64,000 bases of DNA, from contig CAVSTP010000004.1 of assembly GCA_963730935.1 (NCBI GenBank), forward strand, positions 1,184,001 through 1,248,000, read 5' to 3'. The position numbers and the translations under genes are program-made. Below are positions 28,104 to 39,209 of this stretch, piece by piece; positions within the stretch are counted from its first letter, which is position 1, and every line of letters begins with the position of its first letter. The notes below the pieces were generated by a model. That model did not search any database and was not told the DNA's origin. It worked only from the letters and a program-made list of their open reading frames with translations. Source of the stretch: an uncultured Nitrospiraceae bacterium (lineage in GTDB: Bacteria > Nitrospirota > Nitrospiria > Nitrospirales > Nitrospiraceae).

Positions 28104-28847
28104 ATGAAGCTATCGATCATCATTCCGGCATTCAATGAAGCGGACACCATTGAAGCAGTGATCCGACGCATTATGGCCGTCGACCTTGGAGAAATTTGTA
28201 AAGAAATCATCGTCGTCGATGACGCGTCGTGCGACGACACTCCCCAGATTCTCCGGCGTCTGTCCGGCGTTCAGGTCATCCGCCATCTGGTCAATTCCGG
28301 CAAGGGATCGGCTCTTTCCTCGGGAATCAAGGCCGCTACGGGTGACATTGTGATCTTTCAAGACGCTGATCTTGAGTATGCACCGGAGGATTACCCGGCC
28401 ATCATTCAGCCTATCCTTGATGGCTCATACGACGCCGTCATGGGATCACGGTTTCTCCGTGAGCGGCCAGTCTTTCTGGGGTCGCGAAAATCGCCTTATC
28501 TCAACCACTACATCGGTAATCTTCTCATCATCTGGGTCACAAATGTTCTGTATGGGAAGCGATTTACCGACTATGAAGGCTGCTACAAGGCATTTCGCCG
28601 TTCCGTCCTGCTCGACACGCCGGTTGAGGCGACTGGGTTTGAGTTCGACAACGAGTTGATCTGCAAGGTGATGCGAAGAGGCGTCCGGATCTCCGAAGTG
28701 CCCATCCAATACCATCCGCGTACCTACGCGCAGGGGAAAAAAATCACCTGGCGTCACGGCCTCGTAATGCTGTGGACCATCGTGAAGTGGCGCCTCCTTC
28801 CTCTTCCCGCGTCGCAAACCGTGATCGACCGTACCATGGTCGCCTGA
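28104..28847 (+). CDS. GT2 glycosyltransferase, polyprenol-phosphate sugar synthase (DPM1-like)
   Basis: SIIIPAFNE, VDDASCD, NSGKGSA, QDADLEY, GSRF, FEFDNE, GKKITWRHG. Confidence 0.92.
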   Translation: MKLSIIIPAFNEADTIEAVIRRIMAVDLGEICKEIIVVDDASCDDTPQILRRLSGVQVIRHLVNSGKGSALSSGIKAATGDIVIFQDADLEYAPEDYPAIIQPILDGSYDAVMGSRFLRERPVFLGSRKSPYLNHYIGNLLIIWVTNVLYGKRFTDYEGCYKAFRRSVLLDTPVEATGFEFDNELICKVMRRGVRISEVPIQYHPRTYAQGKKITWRHGLVMLWTIVKWRLLPLPASQTVIDRTMVA

Positions 28848-28862
28848 TCGGTCGGAGCACCG

Positions 28863-30392
28863 ATGATTCAGAAAATTTGCCTCATCATCCCACCGTCACT
28901 TTTCCTGCTGGACGAACGGGTGTTCATGTCGCTGGGGATTTTGAAAGTGGCGGCGGTGCTAGAGCAGGAAGGAGTTACGGTCGAACTGTTGGATCTGTCC
29001 GGTGTCACGAATTACGAAGAGGCACTCGCAGCCCACATCCAACAGAGTCGAGTTGAATGCTTCGGCATTACGGCCACCACCCCGCAAATGCCGGCCGCAA
29101 CGAACATTCACGCAACAATCCGGCGCCTCCGACCATCGGCACGAATTGTCTTAGGCGGCCCGCATGTCACACTCGTCTACGCCGCTGCGAAACATGAACG
29201 AAAACGGAGTGTGCTGGGTCGCGCCTCGAGGGCGGTCAAACAACTCACCGCCATGTTCGATGTCCTCGTGACGGGCGACGGCGAAATCGCCATCTTCGAA
29301 GCCTTGCAGCCATCCCCTCCGCGCATTGTGGATGGCGACGACTCCCGGTCGCAATACTTCTTGAGCAATGCTTCACTCGAGCAATTGCCGTTTCCCGCGC
29401 GCCATCTGGTTGACGTCTCCACCTATCACTACAGCATTGACGGAACCAGATCGCTTTCCATGATCGCTCAGCTGGGGTGCCCCTTCGGTTGCGGGTTTTG
29501 CGGAGGGAGAATGAGTCCGTTTCTTCGTCGTGTCCGCACGCGTTCTTCCGAAAATATCGTCCGGGAAATGGTGCACCTTTATCATACGTACGGAGTAAAG
29601 GGCTTCATGCTTTACGACGATGAACTCAATGTGAACCCCAAGATCACATCGTTGATGAGCCTGATTGCGAACACTCAGCAGCAACTCGGTGTCGAATTTC
29701 GACTTCGCGGCTTTATCAAGGCGGAGCTCTTTACTGATGAACAGGCAGAGGCCATGTACGAGGCCGGCTTTCGATGGATCCTCGTGGGATTCGAATCTGG
29801 AGAGCCGCAGATCTTGGAAAATATCCAAAAGAAGGCGAGCCGAGACGATAACTCGCGCTGCATAGAGATCGCCCGGAAGCACAATTTGAAAGTGAAGGCC
29901 CTGATGTCATTGGGACATCCCGGCGAATCCGAGGACACGATACGAGCGACGCGTGACTGGCTTCTCGATGTACGGCCGGACGATTTCGATGCGACGGTTA
30001 TTACGACCTATCCGGGCACGCCCTATTTCGACGAAGCGGTTGAAACCTCTCCTGGCATCTGGACCTATACATGTCGGAACTCAGAGGACACGCTGCACAG
30101 TGTCGAAGTTGACTACCGCCATGTCGCCGAATACTACAAAGGCGCTCCTGGAAACTATACGGCATTCGTCTATACCGATCACCTGACGAGCGAGCAACTT
30201 GTCGACCTGCGCGACCGTCTGGAGGCCGACGTCCGGGCGGCACTTTCCCTTTCATTTAACCCTGCCGATCCCGGCCTTCGCTACGAGCATTCCATGGGTC
30301 AGGGAGCGCTCCCACCGTATATTCTAAAGACCTCGAACCCGTCGACGGCACGGACAGGGACCGACCTACTCCGAATCCTACCTTCACGATAG
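28863..30392 (+). CDS. Cobalamin-binding radical SAM protein
   Basis: N-terminal B12-binding domain (SLGILKVAA, LGGPHVT, GDGE), CPFGCGFC, YDDEL, GFESG, YPGTP. Confidence 0.9.
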   Translation: MIQKICLIIPPSLFLLDERVFMSLGILKVAAVLEQEGVTVELLDLSGVTNYEEALAAHIQQSRVECFGITATTPQMPAATNIHATIRRLRPSARIVLGGPHVTLVYAAAKHERKRSVLGRASRAVKQLTAMFDVLVTGDGEIAIFEALQPSPPRIVDGDDSRSQYFLSNASLEQLPFPARHLVDVSTYHYSIDGTRSLSMIAQLGCPFGCGFCGGRMSPFLRRVRTRSSENIVREMVHLYHTYGVKGFMLYDDELNVNPKITSLMSLIANTQQQLGVEFRLRGFIKAELFTDEQAEAMYEAGFRWILVGFESGEPQILENIQKKASRDDNSRCIEIARKHNLKVKALMSLGHPGESEDTIRATRDWLLDVRPDDFDATVITTYPGTPYFDEAVETSPGIWTYTCRNSEDTLHSVEVDYRHVAEYYKGAPGNYTAFVYTDHLTSEQLVDLRDRLEADVRAALSLSFNPADPGLRYEHSMGQGALPPYILKTSNPSTARTGTDLLRILPSR

Positions 30393-30401
30393 AAGCCGAT
30401 T

Positions 30402-31832
30402 TTACAAGATTCGCTGTGCGGCGAGTCCGACGTCTGGCCGGTCTCGGAGTGCGATCTCCCCGCCACTTTCATGCTCGCTAAACTTGCTTTCCACGCGACA
30501 CAGATAACCGCCTGCGGCCAGGACGCAGAAGATCGGCATGACCGGCATCCGAAAACGGCTGTACGCTTCCGGTCCGCTGCTGACCAGAATCACATAGGCA
30601 GCCGTCAGGATCAGGACCGCGATGGCCCCGCTCCCAAGTCCATTGTGCTTGAGCAGGATACAAACACCGGTATACAGGACGCCGAGAAACACCAGACCAG
30701 ACGTCCATGAAGATAGTGCTGTCATCCAATCTCGCAATGGGAATCGTGCGAAGTCCAGTCGGAGGAAGGCTTCGCGGAGCGCCACGTTATCCGACCCGAA
30801 CAAGTGCGCCAAATTCGATGGTCCCAAGAGATTCGCCGCCGTACCCTGTAACGTCGTCCGGACGAGAAGGACCGGATGCTCGGCGACGACCACTTGCGCG
30901 AATCTGCCCTGGCTCTCCAGTAGCTGGGTCTGTGAGAGTCGAGGCAACTCCGGCGGGAGCAAAGCCGCGTGGTCCTGCGCCAGCCGCCGCTGAGCCTCCT
31001 GGAGAGAGATGCCATCTCGCATGGCAATGATGGCTGCGGCTTTTGCAATGAAGAGATACTGGTTCTTGGCCTGGCTGAATTGCGCCGAACCGGTGGAGAC
31101 GTAATTGCGGACCTGCCACCCCCCAACGGTCGCCGCGAACAGGAGCCACATGATCGCAGCCGACGCGAAGGCCGGCCGCCACCCCTTCGACCGTCGAATC
31201 ACCAGGAACAGCATCACCGGGAGCAGCATCCCGAGATAGTAGGCGGTCGGACGCGTATAGGTCGCCAGCGCCAGGCAAATTCCCGCCCAACACGGGTACC
31301 GAAGGGAGGGATGTTGTAACGCGTACGCCATGCCCAGGAGGCACAGCGTAAGGGCGGTGCCGAATAAAGTTTCGGTCAGCATGACCTGAGAGTAATAGAG
31401 CGAGACGGGATCGAGCGCCAGGAACATTGCCGCAAGAAGGCCGGCCCTGGAACCGAAGAGCAACGAGGCGATACGACACCCAGCGAGCATGGTCACCAGA
31501 CTTAATGCGATCTGGATCGCAACCACGGCGTGGGGACGGATGCCTGCGACGTGGTACAACCCGGAGAGAAGGAAAGGATAGGCTGGAGTCCTGATCGTCT
31601 CCGGTTCGAGCGGAGGAGTCACTGATTGCGAAAAGCTCCCGTGCTCAAGAATATTCAGTGCGAGCTGGTGGTATTCATGTGAATCGGAGCTCTCAAAGAT
31701 TCCCTGAGGATTGGAGCTGAAAAGCAGCATCCCGAGCGCCAGTTTGCTGAGCACACTCAGCAAAGCGACTATCACGAGTGACCGTCGTAGATGATCGCCG
31801 TCGGTCGGCAGGAGCGCAACAAGCCAAGTCAT
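30402..31832 (-). CDS. GT-C fold membrane glycosyltransferase (ArnT/PMT-like)
   Basis: DSHEY loop, RTPAYP, MLTETLF, TRP, RNY, SRFRMPVMP, many TM helices; start at ATG 31832 downstream of TGtTAGAAT. Confidence 0.8.
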   Translation of the reverse strand: MTWLVALLPTDGDHLRRSLVIVALLSVLSKLALGMLLFSSNPQGIFESSDSHEYHQLALNILEHGSFSQSVTPPLEPETIRTPAYPFLLSGLYHVAGIRPHAVVAIQIALSLVTMLAGCRIASLLFGSRAGLLAAMFLALDPVSLYYSQVMLTETLFGTALTLCLLGMAYALQHPSLRYPCWAGICLALATYTRPTAYYLGMLLPVMLFLVIRRSKGWRPAFASAAIMWLLFAATVGGWQVRNYVSTGSAQFSQAKNQYLFIAKAAAIIAMRDGISLQEAQRRLAQDHAALLPPELPRLSQTQLLESQGRFAQVVVAEHPVLLVRTTLQGTAANLLGPSNLAHLFGSDNVALREAFLRLDFARFPLRDWMTALSSWTSGLVFLGVLYTGVCILLKHNGLGSGAIAVLILTAAYVILVSSGPEAYSRFRMPVMPIFCVLAAGGYLCRVESKFSEHESGGEIALRDRPDVGLAAQRIL

Positions 31833-32076
31833 GTCGCGTGAGGAGATGACGTTGATGTGAACGATCTTGTGAGATCGCGTACCTGGCATTCTAACAAGAG
31901 CGTTCCGATGGTCCAGGGAAATACGAATCATGACGATCAGCCGACAATCGGCAGCGCATAGTGAGCCGCTGTCAGGGGACGAGCCCAGTCTGCGCTTCAC
32001 TGGAATGAACGGGGTAACCTTCGAGTCCGGCGACTGTAAGTTCCGTCGCTCTCTAATGTCCCCCGTTCCGCAAAAC

Positions 32077-32111: not shown

Positions 32112-33053
32112 ATGACAGGGGACGCTACATATACCCATCTCCGATCACGCTTACACCTTGCCCTCGGATTGAACGCAATCGTCATCGCCGCCGAATTCAT
32201 CGGAGGCCTCGTACTCAATAGCGTCGGATTGATCGGGGACGCCGGCCACAACCTCATCGATCAAGGCGCCTTGTTCGCCGCCCTCTACGCCCACATCTTG
32301 ACGGCGCGCCCTGCCACTGAAGCGCGGACGTTCGGCTATCATCGAGCCGGCATCATCACCGCGTTGCTCAGCTCGTTCGTGTTGCTGTTCACCGCTCTGG
32401 GCATCACAATGATCGGCGTGAAACGCCTGATGTATCCGGTCCCGGTCGATGGTGCTTGGGTCATGGCGATCGCCGCTCTCAGCTTTGCGGCCAATCTCGG
32501 CATCGCGCTGTTGTTGCAGCACGGGGCGAAGGATGACCTCAATATCAGGAGCGCCTTCTGGCACATGCTGGCGGACGCCTGGGTCTCGCTGGGCGTGATC
32601 TTGAGCGGAGGCGCGATCTTATTGACCGGCTGGACCATTCTCGATCCCCTCGTCAGTTTTCTGCTTGTCGCGGCTATTCTACGCGGCGCCTGGCCGATCT
32701 TCCGCGAATCTCTGGAAATCCTGCTTGAATCCACACCGCCGGGCGTCAGTGCCTCGAACATCGCAGGCGCCATTGAAGCGATTCCTGGCGTGGACAACGT
32801 TCATGATCTGCATGTGTGGGCCATCGAGCCGCGGTTGGTGATGCTGACCTGTCACGTTCTGGTCGACGAGAATCATGGCGCCGTTACGAGCGAACTGCTC
32901 AAGAACATCCGCGGGCGAATCGCCGAGGATTTCGGGATTACCCACATCACGATCCAGCTCGAGACGCATTGCGCCCATAAAGATGCGGTGCATTGCGACC
33001 TGACGACCTTGGCGGGCCAACACCGATCCGATCATCTTCACGCCCATCACTAG
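32112..33053 (+). CDS. Cation diffusion facilitator (CzcD/ZitB-like)
   Basis: DAGHNLID (TM2 HxxxD), TFGYHR, HMLAD (TM5), VHDLHVW, HITIQLE, His-rich tail. Confidence 0.93.
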   Translation: MTGDATYTHLRSRLHLALGLNAIVIAAEFIGGLVLNSVGLIGDAGHNLIDQGALFAALYAHILTARPATEARTFGYHRAGIITALLSSFVLLFTALGITMIGVKRLMYPVPVDGAWVMAIAALSFAANLGIALLLQHGAKDDLNIRSAFWHMLADAWVSLGVILSGGAILLTGWTILDPLVSFLLVAAILRGAWPIFRESLEILLESTPPGVSASNIAGAIEAIPGVDNVHDLHVWAIEPRLVMLTCHVLVDENHGAVTSELLKNIRGRIAEDFGITHITIQLETHCAHKDAVHCDLTTLAGQHRSDHLHAHH

Positions 33054-33060
33054 CACGCCC

Positions 33061-34026
33061 ATGGCTCACGCTCCCGTTCCCTTCTACATGCTCTGCGGAT
33101 CGCTCGGGGCGGGAAAAACGACGCTCCTCATGCGGTTGCTGGAACACTGGAAACAACGCGGACTACGCGCGGGCGTCCTCATGAACGAGGCCGGCGAAAT
33201 CAGTATTGACGGGCCTCGGGTCGGCACCATTGCCGAGCAAGTGATGAATCTCGCCGGTGGATGCGTCTGCTGCGACACCAAAGAAGATCTGTCCTGGGGA
33301 ATCGCAGAGCTTGTCCGCGATTATGGGTCTGACCTGATCGTCCTCGAGTGCTCAGGGTTGGCGGACCCGGCCGAGGTCATCGACGGCGTGACAGATCTCT
33401 ACACGGCCAGACTCGCTCAACTGGAACGGGTCATCGCGCTCCTTCACCCTATCGCCGGGACAGAAAGCCCTTCGAGCGTCTTTGTCACGGAACAGGCCAT
33501 CCGCTGCGCCGACGAGTTGATCCTGAACAAGCGGGACCTCTATGTGTCCGGCCACTGGGAACAATTCAAAGCCTCAATCCTCGCACGCAACCCGCACGCG
33601 CGCCTCTGGGAGACCACCCACGTACGCGTTGACCCCGCCGCACTTCTACAGTCCGAGGCCGGAGAGCGGCATGCGGCGACGACCAACGTCGAGTTTGGTG
33701 CGCCACGTTCCACTGCCCGTGCCCTCTATCATCCAATTGCCACGACCGTCCGCTTGGCAGGACCGTTGAACCGCAAGCGCTTCCTTTTGTGGATCCAGAC
33801 CTTACCCAAGGAAGTGGAACGCGCAAAAGGCTTCGTTCGTTTTGTAAAGGAGCCGGAGCTGCACGAATTTCAGTATGCGCCGCCCGCAGAGGCTACGGTC
33901 ACACCTGTGATGTTACTGGACGAACCCGAGAAAGCCATTGTCCTGATCGGCAGAGGGTACGACGTGGATCATTACGGGGCAGAGCTGTCGGCTTGCGTCG
34001 ATGCCATCGGCGATAGCCCGCGCTGA
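33061..34026 (+). CDS. COG0523 (CobW-like) G3E metallochaperone GTPase
   Basis: GSLGAGKTT, NEAGE, GGCVCC, ECSGLADP, NKRD, RAKGF. Confidence 0.92.
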   Translation: MAHAPVPFYMLCGSLGAGKTTLLMRLLEHWKQRGLRAGVLMNEAGEISIDGPRVGTIAEQVMNLAGGCVCCDTKEDLSWGIAELVRDYGSDLIVLECSGLADPAEVIDGVTDLYTARLAQLERVIALLHPIAGTESPSSVFVTEQAIRCADELILNKRDLYVSGHWEQFKASILARNPHARLWETTHVRVDPAALLQSEAGERHAATTNVEFGAPRSTARALYHPIATTVRLAGPLNRKRFLLWIQTLPKEVERAKGFVRFVKEPELHEFQYAPPAEATVTPVMLLDEPEKAIVLIGRGYDVDHYGAELSACVDAIGDSPR

Positions 34027-34550
34027 CGGAACTGAGGCCATTGCAGCAGGAGCCAGGCGATGCCGGCGCCGCAAAGTCCCCCGATCATCCATCCGCCCAG
34101 CACGTCCGTCACGTAATGCGCTCCAATATAGACGCGGGCCCAGCCGACGAGCCCGACGATGGGCCAACTGATCCATCCCGATCGGGGATACAACACCTGT
34201 AAAAAAGCCGCGGCTGTGGCCGTATTGATGGCATGGTTAGAGGGGAAGCTAAACGTCTTGCCGCAGGCCTGCAGCTGATGCAGGTCCGACATGCTCACAC
34301 AAGGCCGCGGACGGGCCACCAGATGTTTGATTTGCGCCCCCAGAAAATCAAAGAGTCCGATGGAGGCCCCCAAGCTGAGCCCGCCGATAACGGCCTCCCG
34401 CGGAGAGAGCCACAGCCAATAGATGCCCAGCAGAATACCCGGAAGCCACAATACGTCGGGATCCGACAAATGGAGAAACCACCAATCCATCCAGGACGAT
34501 TGCCCGGCCAATTCGTTGATCGACCGCGTCAGAAACGCATCCACGCCCAT
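33972..34550 (-). CDS. PAP2-family phosphatase (undecaprenyl-PP phosphatase-like)
   Basis: KHLVARPRP, SFPSNH, ARVYIGAHYVTDV. Confidence 0.9.
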   Translation of the reverse strand: MGVDAFLTRSINELAGQSSWMDWWFLHLSDPDVLWLPGILLGIYWLWLSPREAVIGGLSLGASIGLFDFLGAQIKHLVARPRPCVSMSDLHQLQACGKTFSFPSNHAINTATAAAFLQVLYPRSGWISWPIVGLVGWARVYIGAHYVTDVLGGWMIGGLCGAGIAWLLLQWPQFRQRGLSPMASTQADSSAP

Positions 34551-34623
34551 GGCGCTGACCATATAGGGTCGTCCACGGTTCGTCAACCGGCGCTCGGAAT
34601 TCCGATCCGGTCGATCCCTGAGT

Positions 34624-35052
34624 TCACTTCGTATGGAAATGGATGCGGACGGTCAGCTCACCATCGACAGGCACGTCGCCTTGCATTTGCGGATCGAAGG
34701 TCCATTTTTTGAGCGCCGCGATACCTGAGGCGGTGAGTTCACGATGCCGACAAGGCTCGAGGATCACGACGGTGACCTTGGCATCTTTCGAGACCAGCAT
34801 GCGCGCCTTCATCCAGTCATCGATCACGGTGCCGTCGAGCGCTGGCGGGATGCCTGGCCAAGGAGTGGATTTTGGAACCGGTCCACCTTGCTGGTCCTTG
34901 TTAAGCGGTAGACCGTGAACATGGACTTCCGGGAGCTCAATGATATCTTCCTGGTGGTCGCTTTCATGGGTCGCTTCGTCCCCGACGATCGCAAACGCGT
35001 TCCAAGACTGAACAAGAAGAAGGACAGAAAGTACTCTCATGACAAAGGGCAT
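34624..35052 (-). CDS. Secreted protein with TonB C-terminal-like domain
   Basis: Signal peptide ..WNAFA; C-terminal AALKKWTFDP..GDVPV..VRIHF pattern typical of TonB_C; directly downstream of the TBDR. Confidence 0.7.
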   Translation of the reverse strand: MPFVMRVLSVLLLVQSWNAFAIVGDEATHESDHQEDIIELPEVHVHGLPLNKDQQGGPVPKSTPWPGIPPALDGTVIDDWMKARMLVSKDAKVTVVILEPCRHRELTASGIAALKKWTFDPQMQGDVPVDGELTVRIHFHTK

Positions 35053-35100
35053 ATCCTAGTCACTCTCACGGATAGAATGGTCAAAGGGAACAATCCATAA

Positions 35101-35164
35101 GGCCTCAAGGAAAAGAGGCCCCGAGCCGTACAGCGGTCGTACGTCGAGGCCTATTTCAGCATCA
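35101..35164. repeat. Degenerate remnant of intergenic repeat / hairpin
   Basis: GGCCTC-N8-GAGGCC hairpin; CGTACGTCG and TTTCAGCATC resemble core and right end of the 19007-19120 element. Confidence 0.35.
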
Positions 35165-35166
35165 TA

Positions 35167-37584
35167 CTAGAAAAACCATTGAGCCCGAAAGAAGAACGAC
35201 CGTGGCATCCCCGCATGCGCGACCCCGAGGCCGATGCTACCTTCCCCCGTATTGTAGAAGTACTGATGATCGAGCAAGTTGATGACGTCGAATCCTACTA
35301 ACAGCTTTTGCTGATCCCACGGCAGATTGAACACGTGCGTAATTGAGGCGTTGTAAATGGTCCATGACTCGAAGTGCGAGGAGTTTGTGAACGCATCCTC
35401 GCTGTCCGAAGTCCGTAAGCCCGACCCATAGAGCATTTGGCCGGACACCGTTGTGTTGAATGGAAACCGGTACGCCACAACGGCCGAACTCGTCATCGTT
35501 TGCGAGTGGTCGCAGAACACGCCTCCCGCGGTATTGATATCCGTAATCTCCTTCGTATCCAGCAGGTAATTCCCCGACTGCAATCCGCTCCCCTTGCACC
35601 GGCCCCACGCCACGTTGCCGCGCGCGCTGAGCTCGTCAGTAATCTGTACTTTGAGGGCCCCGTCGATGCCCATTTGATAGCCCCACTGGAACGCGAAAAA
35701 ATTCAACATTGGCGTCGAGCCGAATTGGCCCGCATCGGACTGGAAATGGGTTCGCTTGTAATAGGCCGCCAATTCCAGGGTGGCCCATTTGCTGAGCGCG
35801 TGGTAACTGCCCACCTCAAAATAGTGAGAGCGCTCCGCCCGGGGATTAAATCCGGTTGGATCCTCCGGTTGCGCCGTCGTTCCCTCGAGATTCACTTTGG
35901 TAAACGCGATCTGCTCAACATTCGGCGGCGTGAACAGTCGGCCATAGTAGGCATGAAACACGTTCGCCCGATTCAACTTATAGGTAACGCCGAGGCGTGG
36001 GCTCACCTGCCCTTCATTGTAGAAGCCTTGAATGATGTCCCCCCGCAGGCCGAGGTTCACAGTCAATGCATCAGTCGGGCTCCACTGGTCCTGGATCCAG
36101 AATTCCTCGCGCGTCTGTACGTTGGTATTGGCACCGGTTTGCGAGAGCACCGGTCCCACGGGGAGGCCGGTCCCTGAGTCGACAGCGAAGTCAAACAACT
36201 GGAATTGATTCTGCGCGTGCGTGTACTCGAACTGAAACCCGGTCTTTACGAGATGTTGTCTGTTGGGAACCCACGTATGATCGAGCCTTGTGCCGAGTGC
36301 GTATGCCTTCCGCTCCTGACTTGCTGTCTGCGTGTCATAAGCCAGCGCGTTGAACGGATCGGTAGTGAAGTTCGCATAGGAATTCCGAAGATAGCCGGAC
36401 AGCTGAAAGAAGTTCTCAGCATTCACGTCATGGCGCCAGACGAGGTGGGTGTATTGAGAATTCTCCTTCTGGTTCTGGTTAACGGCCTGAGAAGCCACTG
36501 GTGAGAACGTGGGGTCCTGCGCTTGAAGGAGCGGCAGCGTGTCTCCGTTCACTTCTAACCCCGGGCTAGTCGGAATCTGATACTTCGCCACTGCATTCAA
36601 AAACACCCAACTGAAGCTGTTGCGGTTGTCATGCTGGTAGTCACCCCGCAGATAGGTCTGATTACGCTCGTGCTGATCGTGAAATACCGAATGGCCGAGC
36701 GTGGGCGGTTCGATGCCTCGATTCGTCGTGGTATAGCTGTTCAGGACATAAAATCGAACCTTCTCTCCGATCGTGCCTCCGTACTCGAACGAGGGGTTCA
36801 CTGTCTCGTTGGAGCCGCCAAAAATTTGGGCCGAGCCGAACCCAGGACGGGTTCCGCTCTTGCTGGTAATATCGACCAGAAGTGCGGTCTTGTTGCCGTA
36901 CTGTGCCTCCATGCCGCCGAGGATGATATCAGCCCGCTCCCACATGCGGGGCGACATGACATCGGTGAAGGTTGAGCTGACCCCTTGGGGAATCGGCACC
37001 CCGTCGATCCGGAACTGCTGGTTCGCATGGTCCTGTCGGATGTGGGTCTGTCCCAAGGCACCATAGGCCACACTGGGAACCGTCAGGAGCACGTCGGCCA
37101 CCGTGTTATTGTTGCCCCGTGGAAGAACCTCAACATCCTTTCGGCTTAATTGATAGGTTTCGCTCGAGGCCTTGTATTGGATCGCCGGAAGCGGCGACAC
37201 GATCTCTAAAGCGATCTCCCGCGTCACCGCAAGGGTGAGCGAGACGGGCGAAAGCGGCATTATCCCGATCTTCACCACGACGTATTCGCTCCGGAAGGTG
37301 TCCCGAACGGCACTGATCGAATAGGTGCCAGACTCCGGGACCCTAACGCGGAACTCGCCGGCCTGATTCGTGACCCCCTGAGCTACCATGGTGCCTTCTT
37401 GATCGCGCACCTGCACGATGGCCTGATCCACACGCCGAAGATCCTGATCCTGGACCGTCCCGATAATCGTCTGGGTGAGGTCACTGTCCGCCGCGTAGGT
37501 GAACGAGGCCGGCCCCTGAGGGACGTAGATGCTTCCCACTAACAAGAAGATACCGAATGAACGCGATAACGCTGCCCGCCGCAT
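35167..37584 (-). CDS. TonB-dependent outer-membrane receptor with N-terminal carboxypeptidase-regulatory-like domain
   Basis: Signal peptide, TNQAGEF Ig-like domain, plug (PSV..HIR..IDGVP, GGMEAQYG), SPRLG, AERSHYFE, NLLD, terminal aromatic WFF; start at ATG 37584 behind GGAGG. Confidence 0.92.
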   Translation of the reverse strand: MRRAALSRSFGIFLLVGSIYVPQGPASFTYAADSDLTQTIIGTVQDQDLRRVDQAIVQVRDQEGTMVAQGVTNQAGEFRVRVPESGTYSISAVRDTFRSEYVVVKIGIMPLSPVSLTLAVTREIALEIVSPLPAIQYKASSETYQLSRKDVEVLPRGNNNTVADVLLTVPSVAYGALGQTHIRQDHANQQFRIDGVPIPQGVSSTFTDVMSPRMWERADIILGGMEAQYGNKTALLVDITSKSGTRPGFGSAQIFGGSNETVNPSFEYGGTIGEKVRFYVLNSYTTTNRGIEPPTLGHSVFHDQHERNQTYLRGDYQHDNRNSFSWVFLNAVAKYQIPTSPGLEVNGDTLPLLQAQDPTFSPVASQAVNQNQKENSQYTHLVWRHDVNAENFFQLSGYLRNSYANFTTDPFNALAYDTQTASQERKAYALGTRLDHTWVPNRQHLVKTGFQFEYTHAQNQFQLFDFAVDSGTGLPVGPVLSQTGANTNVQTREEFWIQDQWSPTDALTVNLGLRGDIIQGFYNEGQVSPRLGVTYKLNRANVFHAYYGRLFTPPNVEQIAFTKVNLEGTTAQPEDPTGFNPRAERSHYFEVGSYHALSKWATLELAAYYKRTHFQSDAGQFGSTPMLNFFAFQWGYQMGIDGALKVQITDELSARGNVAWGRCKGSGLQSGNYLLDTKEITDINTAGGVFCDHSQTMTSSAVVAYRFPFNTTVSGQMLYGSGLRTSDSEDAFTNSSHFESWTIYNASITHVFNLPWDQQKLLVGFDVINLLDHQYFYNTGEGSIGLGVAHAGMPRSFFFRAQWFF

Positions 37585-37586
37585 TC

Positions 37587-37665
37587 TCCGCCTCCGAAAA
37601 CTCACCGGCGGACGTCAGCCGGATGAACAAAGTCATCGTCGGACCAACACGGGTCCGATCAATGA
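37587..37665 (-). promoter_or_regulatory. Structured intergenic RNA: long hairpin plus SD-sequestering hairpin
   Basis: mRNA UCAUUGAUCGGACC-cguguu-GGUCCGACGAUGA (37665-37633) and UCCGCC...GGCGGA (37612-37587) overlapping GGAGGCGGAG SD. Confidence 0.6.
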
Positions 37666-37686
37666 GTAAGGCGAAACCTGACGCTG

Positions 37687-37995
37687 TCAGGCATGAGGAG
37701 GTGCGCGAGAAGGACCGATTGAGGGGAATTCGATCGAAAAGAGTTGCGCGGGTGCAGGAGCTTCATGGGAACCGACGAGCTCGAACGTGGAACAGGGGGG
37801 GCCACCAACATCAAGCGAGCCGGACGTATGGTGTTGCACCCATTGGCAGAGGTCGGTATCGGAGTGTTCGTGTCCATCCGTATCAGCCGCAGCCAGCTCA
37901 TGATGGACATCCTGGGCTACTGCAAAAGGAGCCAGTGCCAGCAGAAGCAGGATGAGGCCTACAGAAAGCCCGCGCGTGACGAAAGAATGACTCAT
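37687..37995 (-). CDS. Secreted His-rich leader peptide with C-terminal RAPP arrest motif (DUF2946/CruR-like)
   Basis: MSHSFVTRGLSVGLILLLLALAPFAVA|QDVHHELAAADTDGHEHSDTDLCQWVQHH...SIGPSRAPPHA*. Confidence 0.8.
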   Translation of the reverse strand: MSHSFVTRGLSVGLILLLLALAPFAVAQDVHHELAAADTDGHEHSDTDLCQWVQHHTSGSLDVGGPPCSTFELVGSHEAPAPAQLFSIEFPSIGPSRAPPHA

Positions 37996-38008
37996 GGTGC
38001 GGCCATTG

Positions 38009-38036
38009 ACTATCACAAGGCTCCAAAGCCTGTCAA
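38009..38036 (-). promoter_or_regulatory. Putative sigma70 promoter for leader-TBDR operon
   Basis: TTGACA-16-GATAGT, -10 ending 13 nt before ATG 37995. Confidence 0.55.
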
Positions 38037-38150
38037 AATCAGCGAATAAACGTGCATCTTCCCTGATATTCCCATATGTTATGCACGCCCATGTAGATTT
38101 TTATTGAGGATTTCGTTATGCTACGTGGTTCAAAGCTTAAAAGGCAGGAC

Positions 38151-39209
38151 ATGAATCGACCGATCGACAATCAACACGTCATAGAAATCAAGGCATTGCC
38201 GTCCCCGCGTGCAATCAAGACCAAGCTTCCCATTCCCGATGAAGCCGCAGCGCTTGTCGTGGAAACACGAGAAGCGATCCGCCGAATCCTCCACGGGCAG
38301 GACCGGGAACGGCTACTGGTCATTGTCGGTCCCTGTTCGATCCATGATCCCGAGGCCGCGTACGAGTATGCGTCAAGACTCAAGCCATTGGCCGTTGCGG
38401 TCCGTGACCGGTTGCTGATCGTCATGCGCACCTATTTCGAGAAGCCCAGGACCACGGTGGGATGGAAAGGGCTCATCAACGATCCCCATCTCGACGGCAC
38501 TTGCGACATTGCCACCGGCATGGAATTGGCCAGGACCATTCTCTTAAAGATCAATCAATCCGGCATGCCCTGCGCCACCGAACTGTTGGATCCGATCAGC
38601 CCGCAGTACATTGCCGATCTCATCAGCTGGACCGCTATTGGAGCCAGAACAACGGAAAGTCAGACCCACAGGGAGATGGCAAGCGGTGTGTCGATGCCGG
38701 TCGGCTTCAAAAACGGCACGGAAGGGAGTTTGCACGTGGCCGTGAACGCCATGACATCCGCCCGAACTCCCCATCATTTCGTCGGCATCAATGCCGATGG
38801 GCAAACCTCGATCATCAAAACCATGGGGAATCCGGACCGGCACATCGTGTTGCGAGGAGGCGGGGGCAAGACCAACTACGAGGCGGAGCACGTCGCCAAA
38901 GCCGAAGCGGCCGTCTCAGGAGAAGGGATCGCACGACCGATCATGATCGATTGCTCTCACGACAACTCCAACAAGGATCATACGCGCCAAGGCACGGTCG
39001 CGCGCGAGGTGCTCCGGCAATTCCGCGAAGGCCGTCAATCGATCATGGGCCTGATGCTTGAGAGCAATCTCAACTCCGGCAAACAGACCTGGAAACAGGG
39101 CGTGGCACTTGTCCATGGTGTCTCGATCACCGACGGCTGCCTCGGCTGGAATGATACCGCAGCCCTCTTGAACGAATTGGCTGAGAGCATCGTCACCCGA
39201 CCTGCCTGA
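38151..39209 (+). CDS. Class I DAHP synthase (AroG/F/H type)
   Basis: VGPCSIHD, YFEKPRTTVGWKGLINDP, IGARTTESQTHRE, GFKNGT, DCSHDNS, SITDGC. Confidence 0.95.
   Translation: MNRPIDNQHVIEIKALPSPRAIKTKLPIPDEAAALVVETREAIRRILHGQDRERLLVIVGPCSIHDPEAAYEYASRLKPLAVAVRDRLLIVMRTYFEKPRTTVGWKGLINDPHLDGTCDIATGMELARTILLKINQSGMPCATELLDPISPQYIADLISWTAIGARTTESQTHREMASGVSMPVGFKNGTEGSLHVAVNAMTSARTPHHFVGINADGQTSIIKTMGNPDRHIVLRGGGGKTNYEAEHVAKAEAAVSGEGIARPIMIDCSHDNSNKDHTRQGTVAREVLRQFREGRQSIMGLMLESNLNSGKQTWKQGVALVHGVSITDGCLGWNDTAALLNELAESIVTRPA

Follow-up and report, generated by a model that had tools for sequence, protein, structure and literature searches.

A predicted zinc-sensing ribosome-arrest leader upstream of a TonB-dependent receptor in Nitrospiraceae

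Which signal might be read by the small secreted peptide encoded directly before a TonB-dependent receptor gene in an uncultured Nitrospiraceae bacterium, and how could it act on that receptor? A sequence-only reading of the window (the whole stretch of 64,000 nucleotides analysed here) had described a 102-aa ORF with a signal ending in AVA before Q, an HHE cluster and a GPSRAPPHA terminus, stopping about 100 nt before the receptor start, and had suggested a non-copper arrest-peptide sensor for Zn, Co or Ni. The ORF is as described, and the receptor ATG at 37584 lies 102 nt past its stop. The parts of the ORF are the following.

37687..37995, minus strand: leader ORF of 102 aa, a candidate metal-sensing arrest peptide, from the sequence (ATG at 37995, stop at 37689-37687)
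37915..37995, minus strand: predicted Sec signal peptide, residues 1-27, from the sequence, with putative cleavage between AVA and Q
37828..37905, minus strand: predicted metal site, residues 31-56, from conservation (core H32, H44, D48, C50 and W52, plus H31, H42 and H55/56)
37696..37707, minus strand: RAPP codons, the predicted stall site, kept in 79/79 complete orthologues, with Pro99 in the P-site as in the toeprinting of CruR (PMC12992588)

The hydrophobic region of the leader spans L10-L21 and the AVA-Q junction residues 25-28; cleavage was read from the A-x-A pattern alone, and small residues occupy positions -3 and -1 in 56 of 73 diverse members. Residues 31-56 read HHE..DGHEHSDTDLCQWVQHH. 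An AlphaFold2 model gave a helix at 3-38, a loop and a helix at 46-59, with low confidence (pLDDT 76, pTM 0.39); it had no Foldseek match, and the ligand geometry is unreadable from it. Pfam and NCBIfam scans of the leader returned no family over the cut-off.

A profile of the leader matched in 59 of 251 genomes of the phylum, including 46/46 of the window's own family (f1) and 10/22 of its sister family (f2), with no match in the remote families sampled among the 251; a protein search gave matches in 31 of 41 related genomes. As orthologues we took the best 80 of 322 GTDB relatives. The closest named records are from Nitrospira/Nitrospiraceae, and f1 is taken to be that family. RAPP is kept in 79 of these 80 loci, the 80th being interrupted by a contig end, and in all 79 complete orthologues the distance from Cys50 to Arg97 is 47, with a tail of 2-3 residues after RAPP, while the spacer varies freely in sequence and is fixed in length. 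The search pattern itself asked for H44, D48, C50 and W52, which are therefore conserved by construction in this set; H31, H32, H42, H55 and H56, which together with RAPP lay outside the pattern, were found in 80/80 loci, and residues 22-60 as a whole are almost invariant among close orthologues. The conservation of RAPP, of the His cluster and of the Cys-to-RAPP distance was borne out, as the comparative checks named by the sequence-only reading would have it.

At 50% clustering, CxW and R[AGP]PP stood 46-48 residues apart in 77 of 110 representatives; a further 23 had CxW without RAPP in range (many look truncated, as judged without the DNA), and 10 were without CxW. Among the 73 complete representatives selected for both motifs, H32 and H44 are invariant, D48 and W52 occur in 72, and His stands at 55 or 56 in 65. 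The fixed core across diverse members is consequently H32, H44, D48, C50 and W52 rather than the CxWxxHH that had been read as part of the site replacing CxxC; the absence of CxxC itself stands. The second Cys of the leader (68) is unconserved, the single conserved one being Cys50 in DxCxW, and RAPP and RGPP interchange within the family.

When stop-to-stop frames with RAPP or RGPP at most 15 residues from the stop were collected from the whole genome, a hydrophobic segment was present in 5 of 60, and four of these five look like real leaders; six control tetrapeptides put through the same test gave 1 in 279 frames. Codon choice at the motif is biased as well: Pro99 is CCT in 53/79 orthologues (14% genome-wide) and Arg97 is CGC in 72/79 (32% genome-wide). 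The anatomy of the leader is more than chance, and the leader is a real, core gene of the window's family.

A search with the DUF2946 HMM, which the sequence-only reading had suggested, gave no family link: PF11162 had no match for the leader at E up to 1, nor at the locus in a genome scan. Weak matches occurred in 9 of 73 relatives (best E 0.0026), the nearest named ESM cluster of the leader is 16% DUF2946 (0.94), and a profile comparison with a Bradyrhizobium DUF2946 leader, one that stands before a homologous receptor, aligned the C-terminal 23 columns alone, at 6.5% probability. Judged by its sequence, with no Pfam match and no CxxC, the leader falls outside DUF2946.

The comparison with CruR (Bp2923) of Bordetella pertussis is more instructive. 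In CruR 45 residues separate the two motifs, and five added residues impair regulation (PMC9426467); its arrest is reported from toeprinting (PMC12992588), and RAPP and RGPP are both described as robust arrest cores. The leader resembles CruR in being the first gene before a TonB-dependent receptor, in its export signal and in RAPP just before the C-terminus, in the spacing (46 residues here, 45 in CruR), in the long intergenic gap and C-rich 3' end, and in the polarity to be expected, with metal turning uptake off; a spacer of fixed length and variable sequence between ligand cluster and RAPP is a CruR signature. It differs in having a His/Asp/single-Cys site and neither CxxC nor a DUF2946 match, in its context of zinc starvation instead of copper, and in a gap of 102 nt against 162 nt. 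CruR is moreover reported to act via Rho, with a dispensable signal peptide: regulation did not need it (PMC9426467), which makes the periplasmic step uncertain for the window leader.

The leader also has the features of the CutF-like rule of Ozturk 2023, being under 150 aa, with a signal (by pattern alone), PP in the last 15 residues and a same-strand neighbour within 1000 nt. With CutF of Rhodobacter capsulatus (PMC9973294, bioRxiv 10.1101/2025.02.05.636593) it may share an RNA masking of the downstream ribosome-binding site, as folding predicts. CutF's CxxxC is absent from the window leader; the spacing recurs in its paralogues, in 53 leaders of a CxWxC type described below. CutF is reported to sense copper, the metal prolonging the stall and inducing a detoxifying oxidase. 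His-only CutF-like clusters 14 and 17 precede HupE/UreJ and were proposed in silico as Ni/Co leaders (PMC9973294); HupE/UreJ are Ni/Co transporters and not zinc genes, and three supplement files of that paper contain no match to 'Nitrospir'.

A wider class of RAPP/RGPP leaders before TonB-dependent receptors, reported as universal in Gram-negative bacteria (PMC12992588), agrees with the leader in the small secreted protein, the C-terminal RAPP and the TonB receptor next to it, but the main text of that paper assigns no ligand to the class and does not use the word zinc. SecM, ApdA and ApdP (PMC10987492) share with the leader the RAPP-type arrest core, the localisation signal and, by prediction here, a ribosome-binding site hidden by a stem; they have sec or yidC genes downstream, whereas metal-uptake and zinc-sparing genes, and a ligand cluster, characterise the present family. 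The window leader stands upstream of a TonB-dependent receptor and not of secA, secDF or yidC, by which Sec/YidC monitors are recognised. RAPP leaders before TonB receptors (PMC12992588) and non-copper, Ni/Co CutF-like sensors (PMC9973294) are thus already in print. Our literature search, for which most subscription papers and some survey data tables were out of reach, found neither a zinc-sensing arrest leader nor this leader family. By analogy, we propose that the leader would work like CruR in anatomy, spacing and receptor target, with CutF-like masking by RNA.

What such a switch could control was next read from the genes around it.

35167..37584, minus strand: TonB-dependent receptor of 805 aa, the likely regulated gene (Pfam PF00593, PF07715, PF13620)
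34624..35052, minus strand: small TonB C-terminal-domain protein, probably of the same operon (PF03544, E 5e-5)
33972..34586, minus strand: PAP2-family phosphatase, a conserved downstream same-strand neighbour (Pfam scan)
32112..34026, plus strand: CDF transporter and COG0523 GTPase, convergent and outside the leader transcript (ORF list, Pfam/NCBIfam)

The receptor ATG is preceded by GGAGG at 37595-37591. In accordance with the expected synteny, the receptor is the next gene after the leader in 76/76 informative loci, those with at least 300 nt downstream, and the gap measures 87-116 nt in 73 sequences. Where the downstream sequence reached 3.5 kb or more, the small TonB_C protein and the PAP2 phosphatase were each found in 53 of 54 loci; where at least 7.5 kb was available, COG0523 was present in 40 of 41 loci and CDF in 35 of 41. 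The CDF gene (32112-33053, plus strand; best equivalog match ZitB, below the NCBIfam cut-off) and the COG0523 gene (33061-34026, plus strand) had been cited as neighbours of the leader. They are indeed there, but membership of its operon is ruled out by strand, both being convergent with it, and COG0523 is on the strand opposite the leader in 50/50 loci that hold it.

By the gene contexts described below, the receptor is probably a zinc importer. It has no PDB relative by sequence, and its 120 listed homologues bear generic names alone, among them automatic 'Fe transport' labels, which were not taken as evidence. The small TonB_C protein (34624-35052, minus strand) has a signal-like start and, in orthologues, a conserved acidic/His stretch, DEATHESDH, and may bind metal. 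Farther along, at 28104-32000, lie a glycosyltransferase, a B12-binding radical-SAM-like gene and a membrane glycosyltransferase-like gene (named by eye), syntenic in the related genome G001. Four RNA runs in contig form contained at most 0.31 of the words, and levels, strand and co-transcription are unreadable from these contigs.

The paralogues of the leader are more informative about the metal. The surroundings of a hand-picked subset of the leader matches were retrieved, 72 stretches in all, in which related genomes are kin and counts overstate independence. Leaders were counted if they scored above 8 on the profile and had R[AGP]PP near the terminus, which gave 103: 53 of a CxWxC type, 42 with DxCxW, the window's type, and 8 with DxHxW. 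All 103 carry Cys or His 46-48 residues before the Arg, and HH-align finds the CxWxC type homologous to the His types (96%, E 1.7e-9); no first-downstream gene cluster, however, is common to the 50 His-type and the 53 CxWxC leaders. Of the 42 DxCxW leaders, 19 head the window-type receptor, 10 a porin-like gene with a ZnuA/AztC-type ABC system after it, and 1 more such a unit behind an inserted gene; 8 head COG0523 plus a WD40 gene, 1 heads S18-S14 copies and 1 another gene, and 2 have nothing readable behind them. The DxHxW leaders head another receptor (3), ZigA (1), S18 or S14 copies (2) and a MerC-ZnuA fusion (1), the eighth standing before an unclear stretch and a ZigA-like gene. Pooled, the 50 His-type leaders thus precede COG0523 genes nine times, with one of the nine, a ZigA, above the NCBIfam cut-off, and S18/S14 copies poor in Cys three times; most of the cysteines that the only S14 and S18 of the window's genome have are missing from these copies. 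Among the reported members of the Zur regulon are zinc-free ribosomal paralogues and COG0523 genes, a WD40-linked subfamily of the latter included (PMC2770081). No Ni, Co or Cu family was met among the His-type first-downstream genes scanned, and the ABC proteins behind His-type leaders also match manganese models. First behind the CxWxC leaders stand a MetA-type barrel (27), AhpC/TSA proteins, another receptor and TonB (6 each), an HTH protein (4) and an unnamed protein (3), with nothing in one case; from the CxxxC of CutF we infer that these may be copper genes.

Several single loci deserve mention. In the window's own genome there are two CxWxC/RGPP leaders, C2:193014-193340 and C2:189726-190025 (both minus strand), of which one is followed by a TonB/BNR/thioredoxin-like block and the other by a further TonB-dependent receptor; they likely belong to the copper-type branch of the leader family. 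A fourth hydrophobic-start RAPP ORF of that genome, C3:128364-128810 (minus strand), is of a different kind (HTHLPD..AHTVFSPDLPGEF) and has no clear same-strand gene behind it. The Cys-free DxHxW subtype, found for instance at L033:5465-5788, L123:6175-6486, L134:982-1329, L135:984-1292 and L136:994-1299, has His in place of Cys50 at the same 46-47 distance to RGPP. Islands of zinc-starvation genes with serial leaders occur at L031:8494-15300 (genome G001) and in L133 (G148); the order in L031 is Zur-like gene, leader, leader, receptor, leader, S18, S14, zigA, and with serial leaders beside a Zur-like gene some genes of such islands would be under both controls. A dihydroorotase gene near one paralogue, a candidate zinc-free copy, was given no weight.

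That Zur-like gene may link the leaders to zinc from a second side. It is a second Fur-family gene, seen immediately upstream of 11 His-type leaders, with a leader-receptor orthologue (L174) among them; no CxWxC leader has it there. In the promoter of this gene stands ATGCAA-N5-TTGCA[AT], which is similar to the site ATGCAACnnnGTTGCAT predicted for Desulfovibrio Zur (PMC545781). The two copies tested scored best on Fur/PerR models, all below the cut-off; as the profiles do not name Zur, we call the gene Zur-like, a label that draws on context and box. A matrix built from 7 promoter sites of Zur-like genes scored 16.6-29.6 upstream of 10 of the 42 DxCxW and 1 of the 8 DxHxW leaders, and found none upstream of the 53 CxWxC leaders (maximum 7.2). 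In 8 of the 11 cases only a few bases at most separate the site from a TTGAC-type -35. All ten DxCxW cases are from sister-family genomes with the Zur-like gene, and five of them head the window-type receptor. Written as a pattern after the sites had been seen, the box has 25 matches in the 660 kb of fetched DNA and 7 in the own genome of 4.05 Mb.

None of 80 f1-type leader promoters scored above 13.1, and that of the window leader, at -2.8, has no box. The Zur-like gene was found in 25/92 f1, 74/91 f2, 0/14 f3 and 0/3 f4 genomes, which rules out that Zur is absent altogether from these bacteria. In the own genome (99.9% complete) no Zur-like gene was found; its one Fur-family gene is best matched by iron Fur models, and its znuA-C-B-like operon (C2:427954-430566, plus strand) has no RAPP leader. 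Four distant receptor homologues (about 30% identity) were inspected, and two have zinc-uptake genes next to them together with a Fur-family or repressor gene: around one are a Fur-family gene, zigA and a zinc ABC protein, and behind the other come a metal ABC protein and a repressor, with a palindrome that by eye resembles Caulobacter Zur sites. The third follows a DUF2946 leader and the fourth gave no clue. The DUF2946-annotated leader at L216:4080-4445 on a Bradyrhizobium plasmid has both His residues as well as CPIC, ends in RGPP and precedes a 31%-identical receptor homologue, so that elsewhere another kind of leader stands before this family of receptors.

Taken together, the sequence evidence makes it somewhat probable, in our judgement, that the leader is a zinc-sensing ribosome-arrest leader of the CruR/CutF kind that would keep the receptor on when zinc is scarce. 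The exported nascent chain would enter Sec and stall at RAPP while zinc is scarce, and the receptor would then be expressed. With Pro99 in the P-site, some 30 residues would fill the tunnel and some 17 would cross SecY (figures from PMC9973294), a geometry that could put H32-C50 at the periplasmic mouth. There zinc might bind the His/Asp/Cys site, fold the helix-loop-helix of the low-confidence model, pull the chain and cancel the arrest; after release the mRNA would refold over the receptor ribosome-binding site, Rho would load on the C-rich 3' end, or both. The polarity, with zinc turning the receptor off, is read from the uptake targets and from the repressor position of the box in relatives. 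As no Zur-like repressor was found in the own genome, the leader would be the receptor's only zinc switch there.

Of the earlier proposal, the non-copper arrest sensor came through in its comparative predictions, namely RAPP, His cluster, distance and synteny, while its choice of Zn, Co or Ni is narrowed to most likely zinc by the paralogue contexts and Zur-type boxes. Zinc is here deduced for the regulon and not for the peptide's own ligand, and the same switch could then sense Co, Ni, Mn or Cu, with the zinc context describing the regulon. The His-only clusters before Ni/Co transporters (PMC9973294), the manganese matches of the ABC proteins and the homology of the His-type leaders to CxWxC leaders, whose spacing matches the copper motif of CutF, all speak for such a ligand; yet the Cys-poor S14/S18 copies, ZigA and the Zur-type boxes point to zinc, and the His-type first-downstream genes scanned yielded no Ni, Co or Cu family. 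We regard another metal as rather unlikely.

The predicted promoter and RNA elements around the leader are the following.

38009..38036, minus strand: predicted sigma-70-type promoter of the leader operon (TTGACA, 16 nt, TG-n-GATAGT; 10/12 matches)
37684..37761, minus strand: C-rich, G-poor stretch (33 C, 13 G), by composition a possible Rho loading site
37578..37698, minus strand: long-range RNA stem predicted by folding

The second hexamer of the promoter ends 14 nt before the leader ATG with no Shine-Dalgarno between, and the mRNA on which the leader is made may be almost leaderless, with few bases before the ATG (37995-38036, minus strand). The promoter search found 4 sites against 2.6 in shuffles, which is weak alone; by eye, a TTGACA..TGnTAcT shape lies just 5' of the ATG in many orthologues. 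Rfam gave no match in 33000-39000 at E up to 1, and hence no known riboswitch there.

In the predicted stem, the Shine-Dalgarno at 37594-37587 is taken up by pairing with 37675-37668, and the receptor AUG region by pairing with codons 100-102 (37698-37693); the fold has z = -1.95, and 11 of 200 shuffles fold as well. Over 73 sequences (79 loci plus the window, minus 7 with an uncertain start), opening the receptor start region costs 16.9 kcal/mol when the RNA is free and 9.3 with a modelled leader stall, a drop that any masking would be expected to give, so that the recoding control alone was counted. There, in 65 of 73 sequences, the receptor start is masked more strongly with the native codons than with synonymous ones (16.9 vs 13.4 kcal/mol). 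In the window the opening cost is 14.4 kcal/mol native against 12.2-15.7 recoded, i.e. no excess, and the modelled stall frees the AUG but raises Shine-Dalgarno accessibility only in part, from 0.18 to 0.29. In these models the window's RNA switch is weak, unlike the family-wide signal. C exceeds G in the last 78 nt of the leader in 79/79 sequences, with G at 15.5 against 21.0 expected from recoding, and a rho gene is present in the own genome; by its composition, the C-rich, G-poor leader end fits a Rho site or an anti-Shine-Dalgarno arm.

An RNA wired in this CutF-like manner might also work with the opposite polarity, zinc prolonging the stall and turning the downstream gene on, as is reported for CutF with its stem-loop over the ribosome-binding site. 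We consider this improbable: the targets are uptake and zinc-sparing genes, and a Zur-type box occupies the repressor position of orthologous units, where induction by zinc would oppose the promoter logic. An equally doubtful alternative is that the leader, like SecM, monitors export or envelope state and does no more than tie the synthesis of the receptor to the capacity for secretion; the His cluster would then be incidental, or serve as a scaffold. Sec/YidC monitors that have a signal peptide and RAPP are known (PMC10987492), and the receptor is itself a Sec substrate; several targets of the family, though, are cytoplasmic (COG0523, S14/S18), the His/Asp/Cys residues are the most conserved part of the leader, and the motif class of a leader tracks the class of its downstream gene. 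Least probable of all is a mainly mature periplasmic zinc-binding protein, a chaperone or receptor helper acting in trans with RAPP of little regulatory effect, for although the near-invariance of residues 22-60 exceeds what a transient sensor may need and the model predicts two helices, the spacer is fixed in length and variable in sequence, RAPP sits 2-3 residues before the stop with biased codons, the leader is always the first gene, and CruR and CutF are reported as short-lived or undetected as mature proteins.

If the leader is a zinc-sensing arrest leader, a bolder reading may be offered tentatively: that Nitrospirales run a post-transcriptional zinc regulon, that one arrest-peptide family has split into a CxWxC and a His/Asp/Cys zinc branch, and that the leader has replaced Zur in most f1 genomes, the window's own among them. 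The zinc-branch copies would then head classical Zur targets (importers, COG0523 chaperones, Cys-poor S14/S18), and it would be a nascent chain in the translocon, and no zinc transcription factor, that reads periplasmic zinc. The replacement is suggested by the counts in f1, 25/92 for the Zur-like gene against 46/46 for the leader.

The metal-sensing arrest leaders tested so far are reported to respond to copper, and no riboswitch is known for Cu or Zn according to PMC9426467. The leader described here, if the prediction is true, would be a post-transcriptional zinc sensor in bacteria, placed outside the cytoplasm. It could explain how zinc uptake is controlled in nitrite- and ammonia-oxidising Nitrospira that have no Zur-like gene, and CxWxC, DxCxW and DxHxW, on one scaffold with the same 46-48 spacing, would form a ready-made set for metal choice and stall release.
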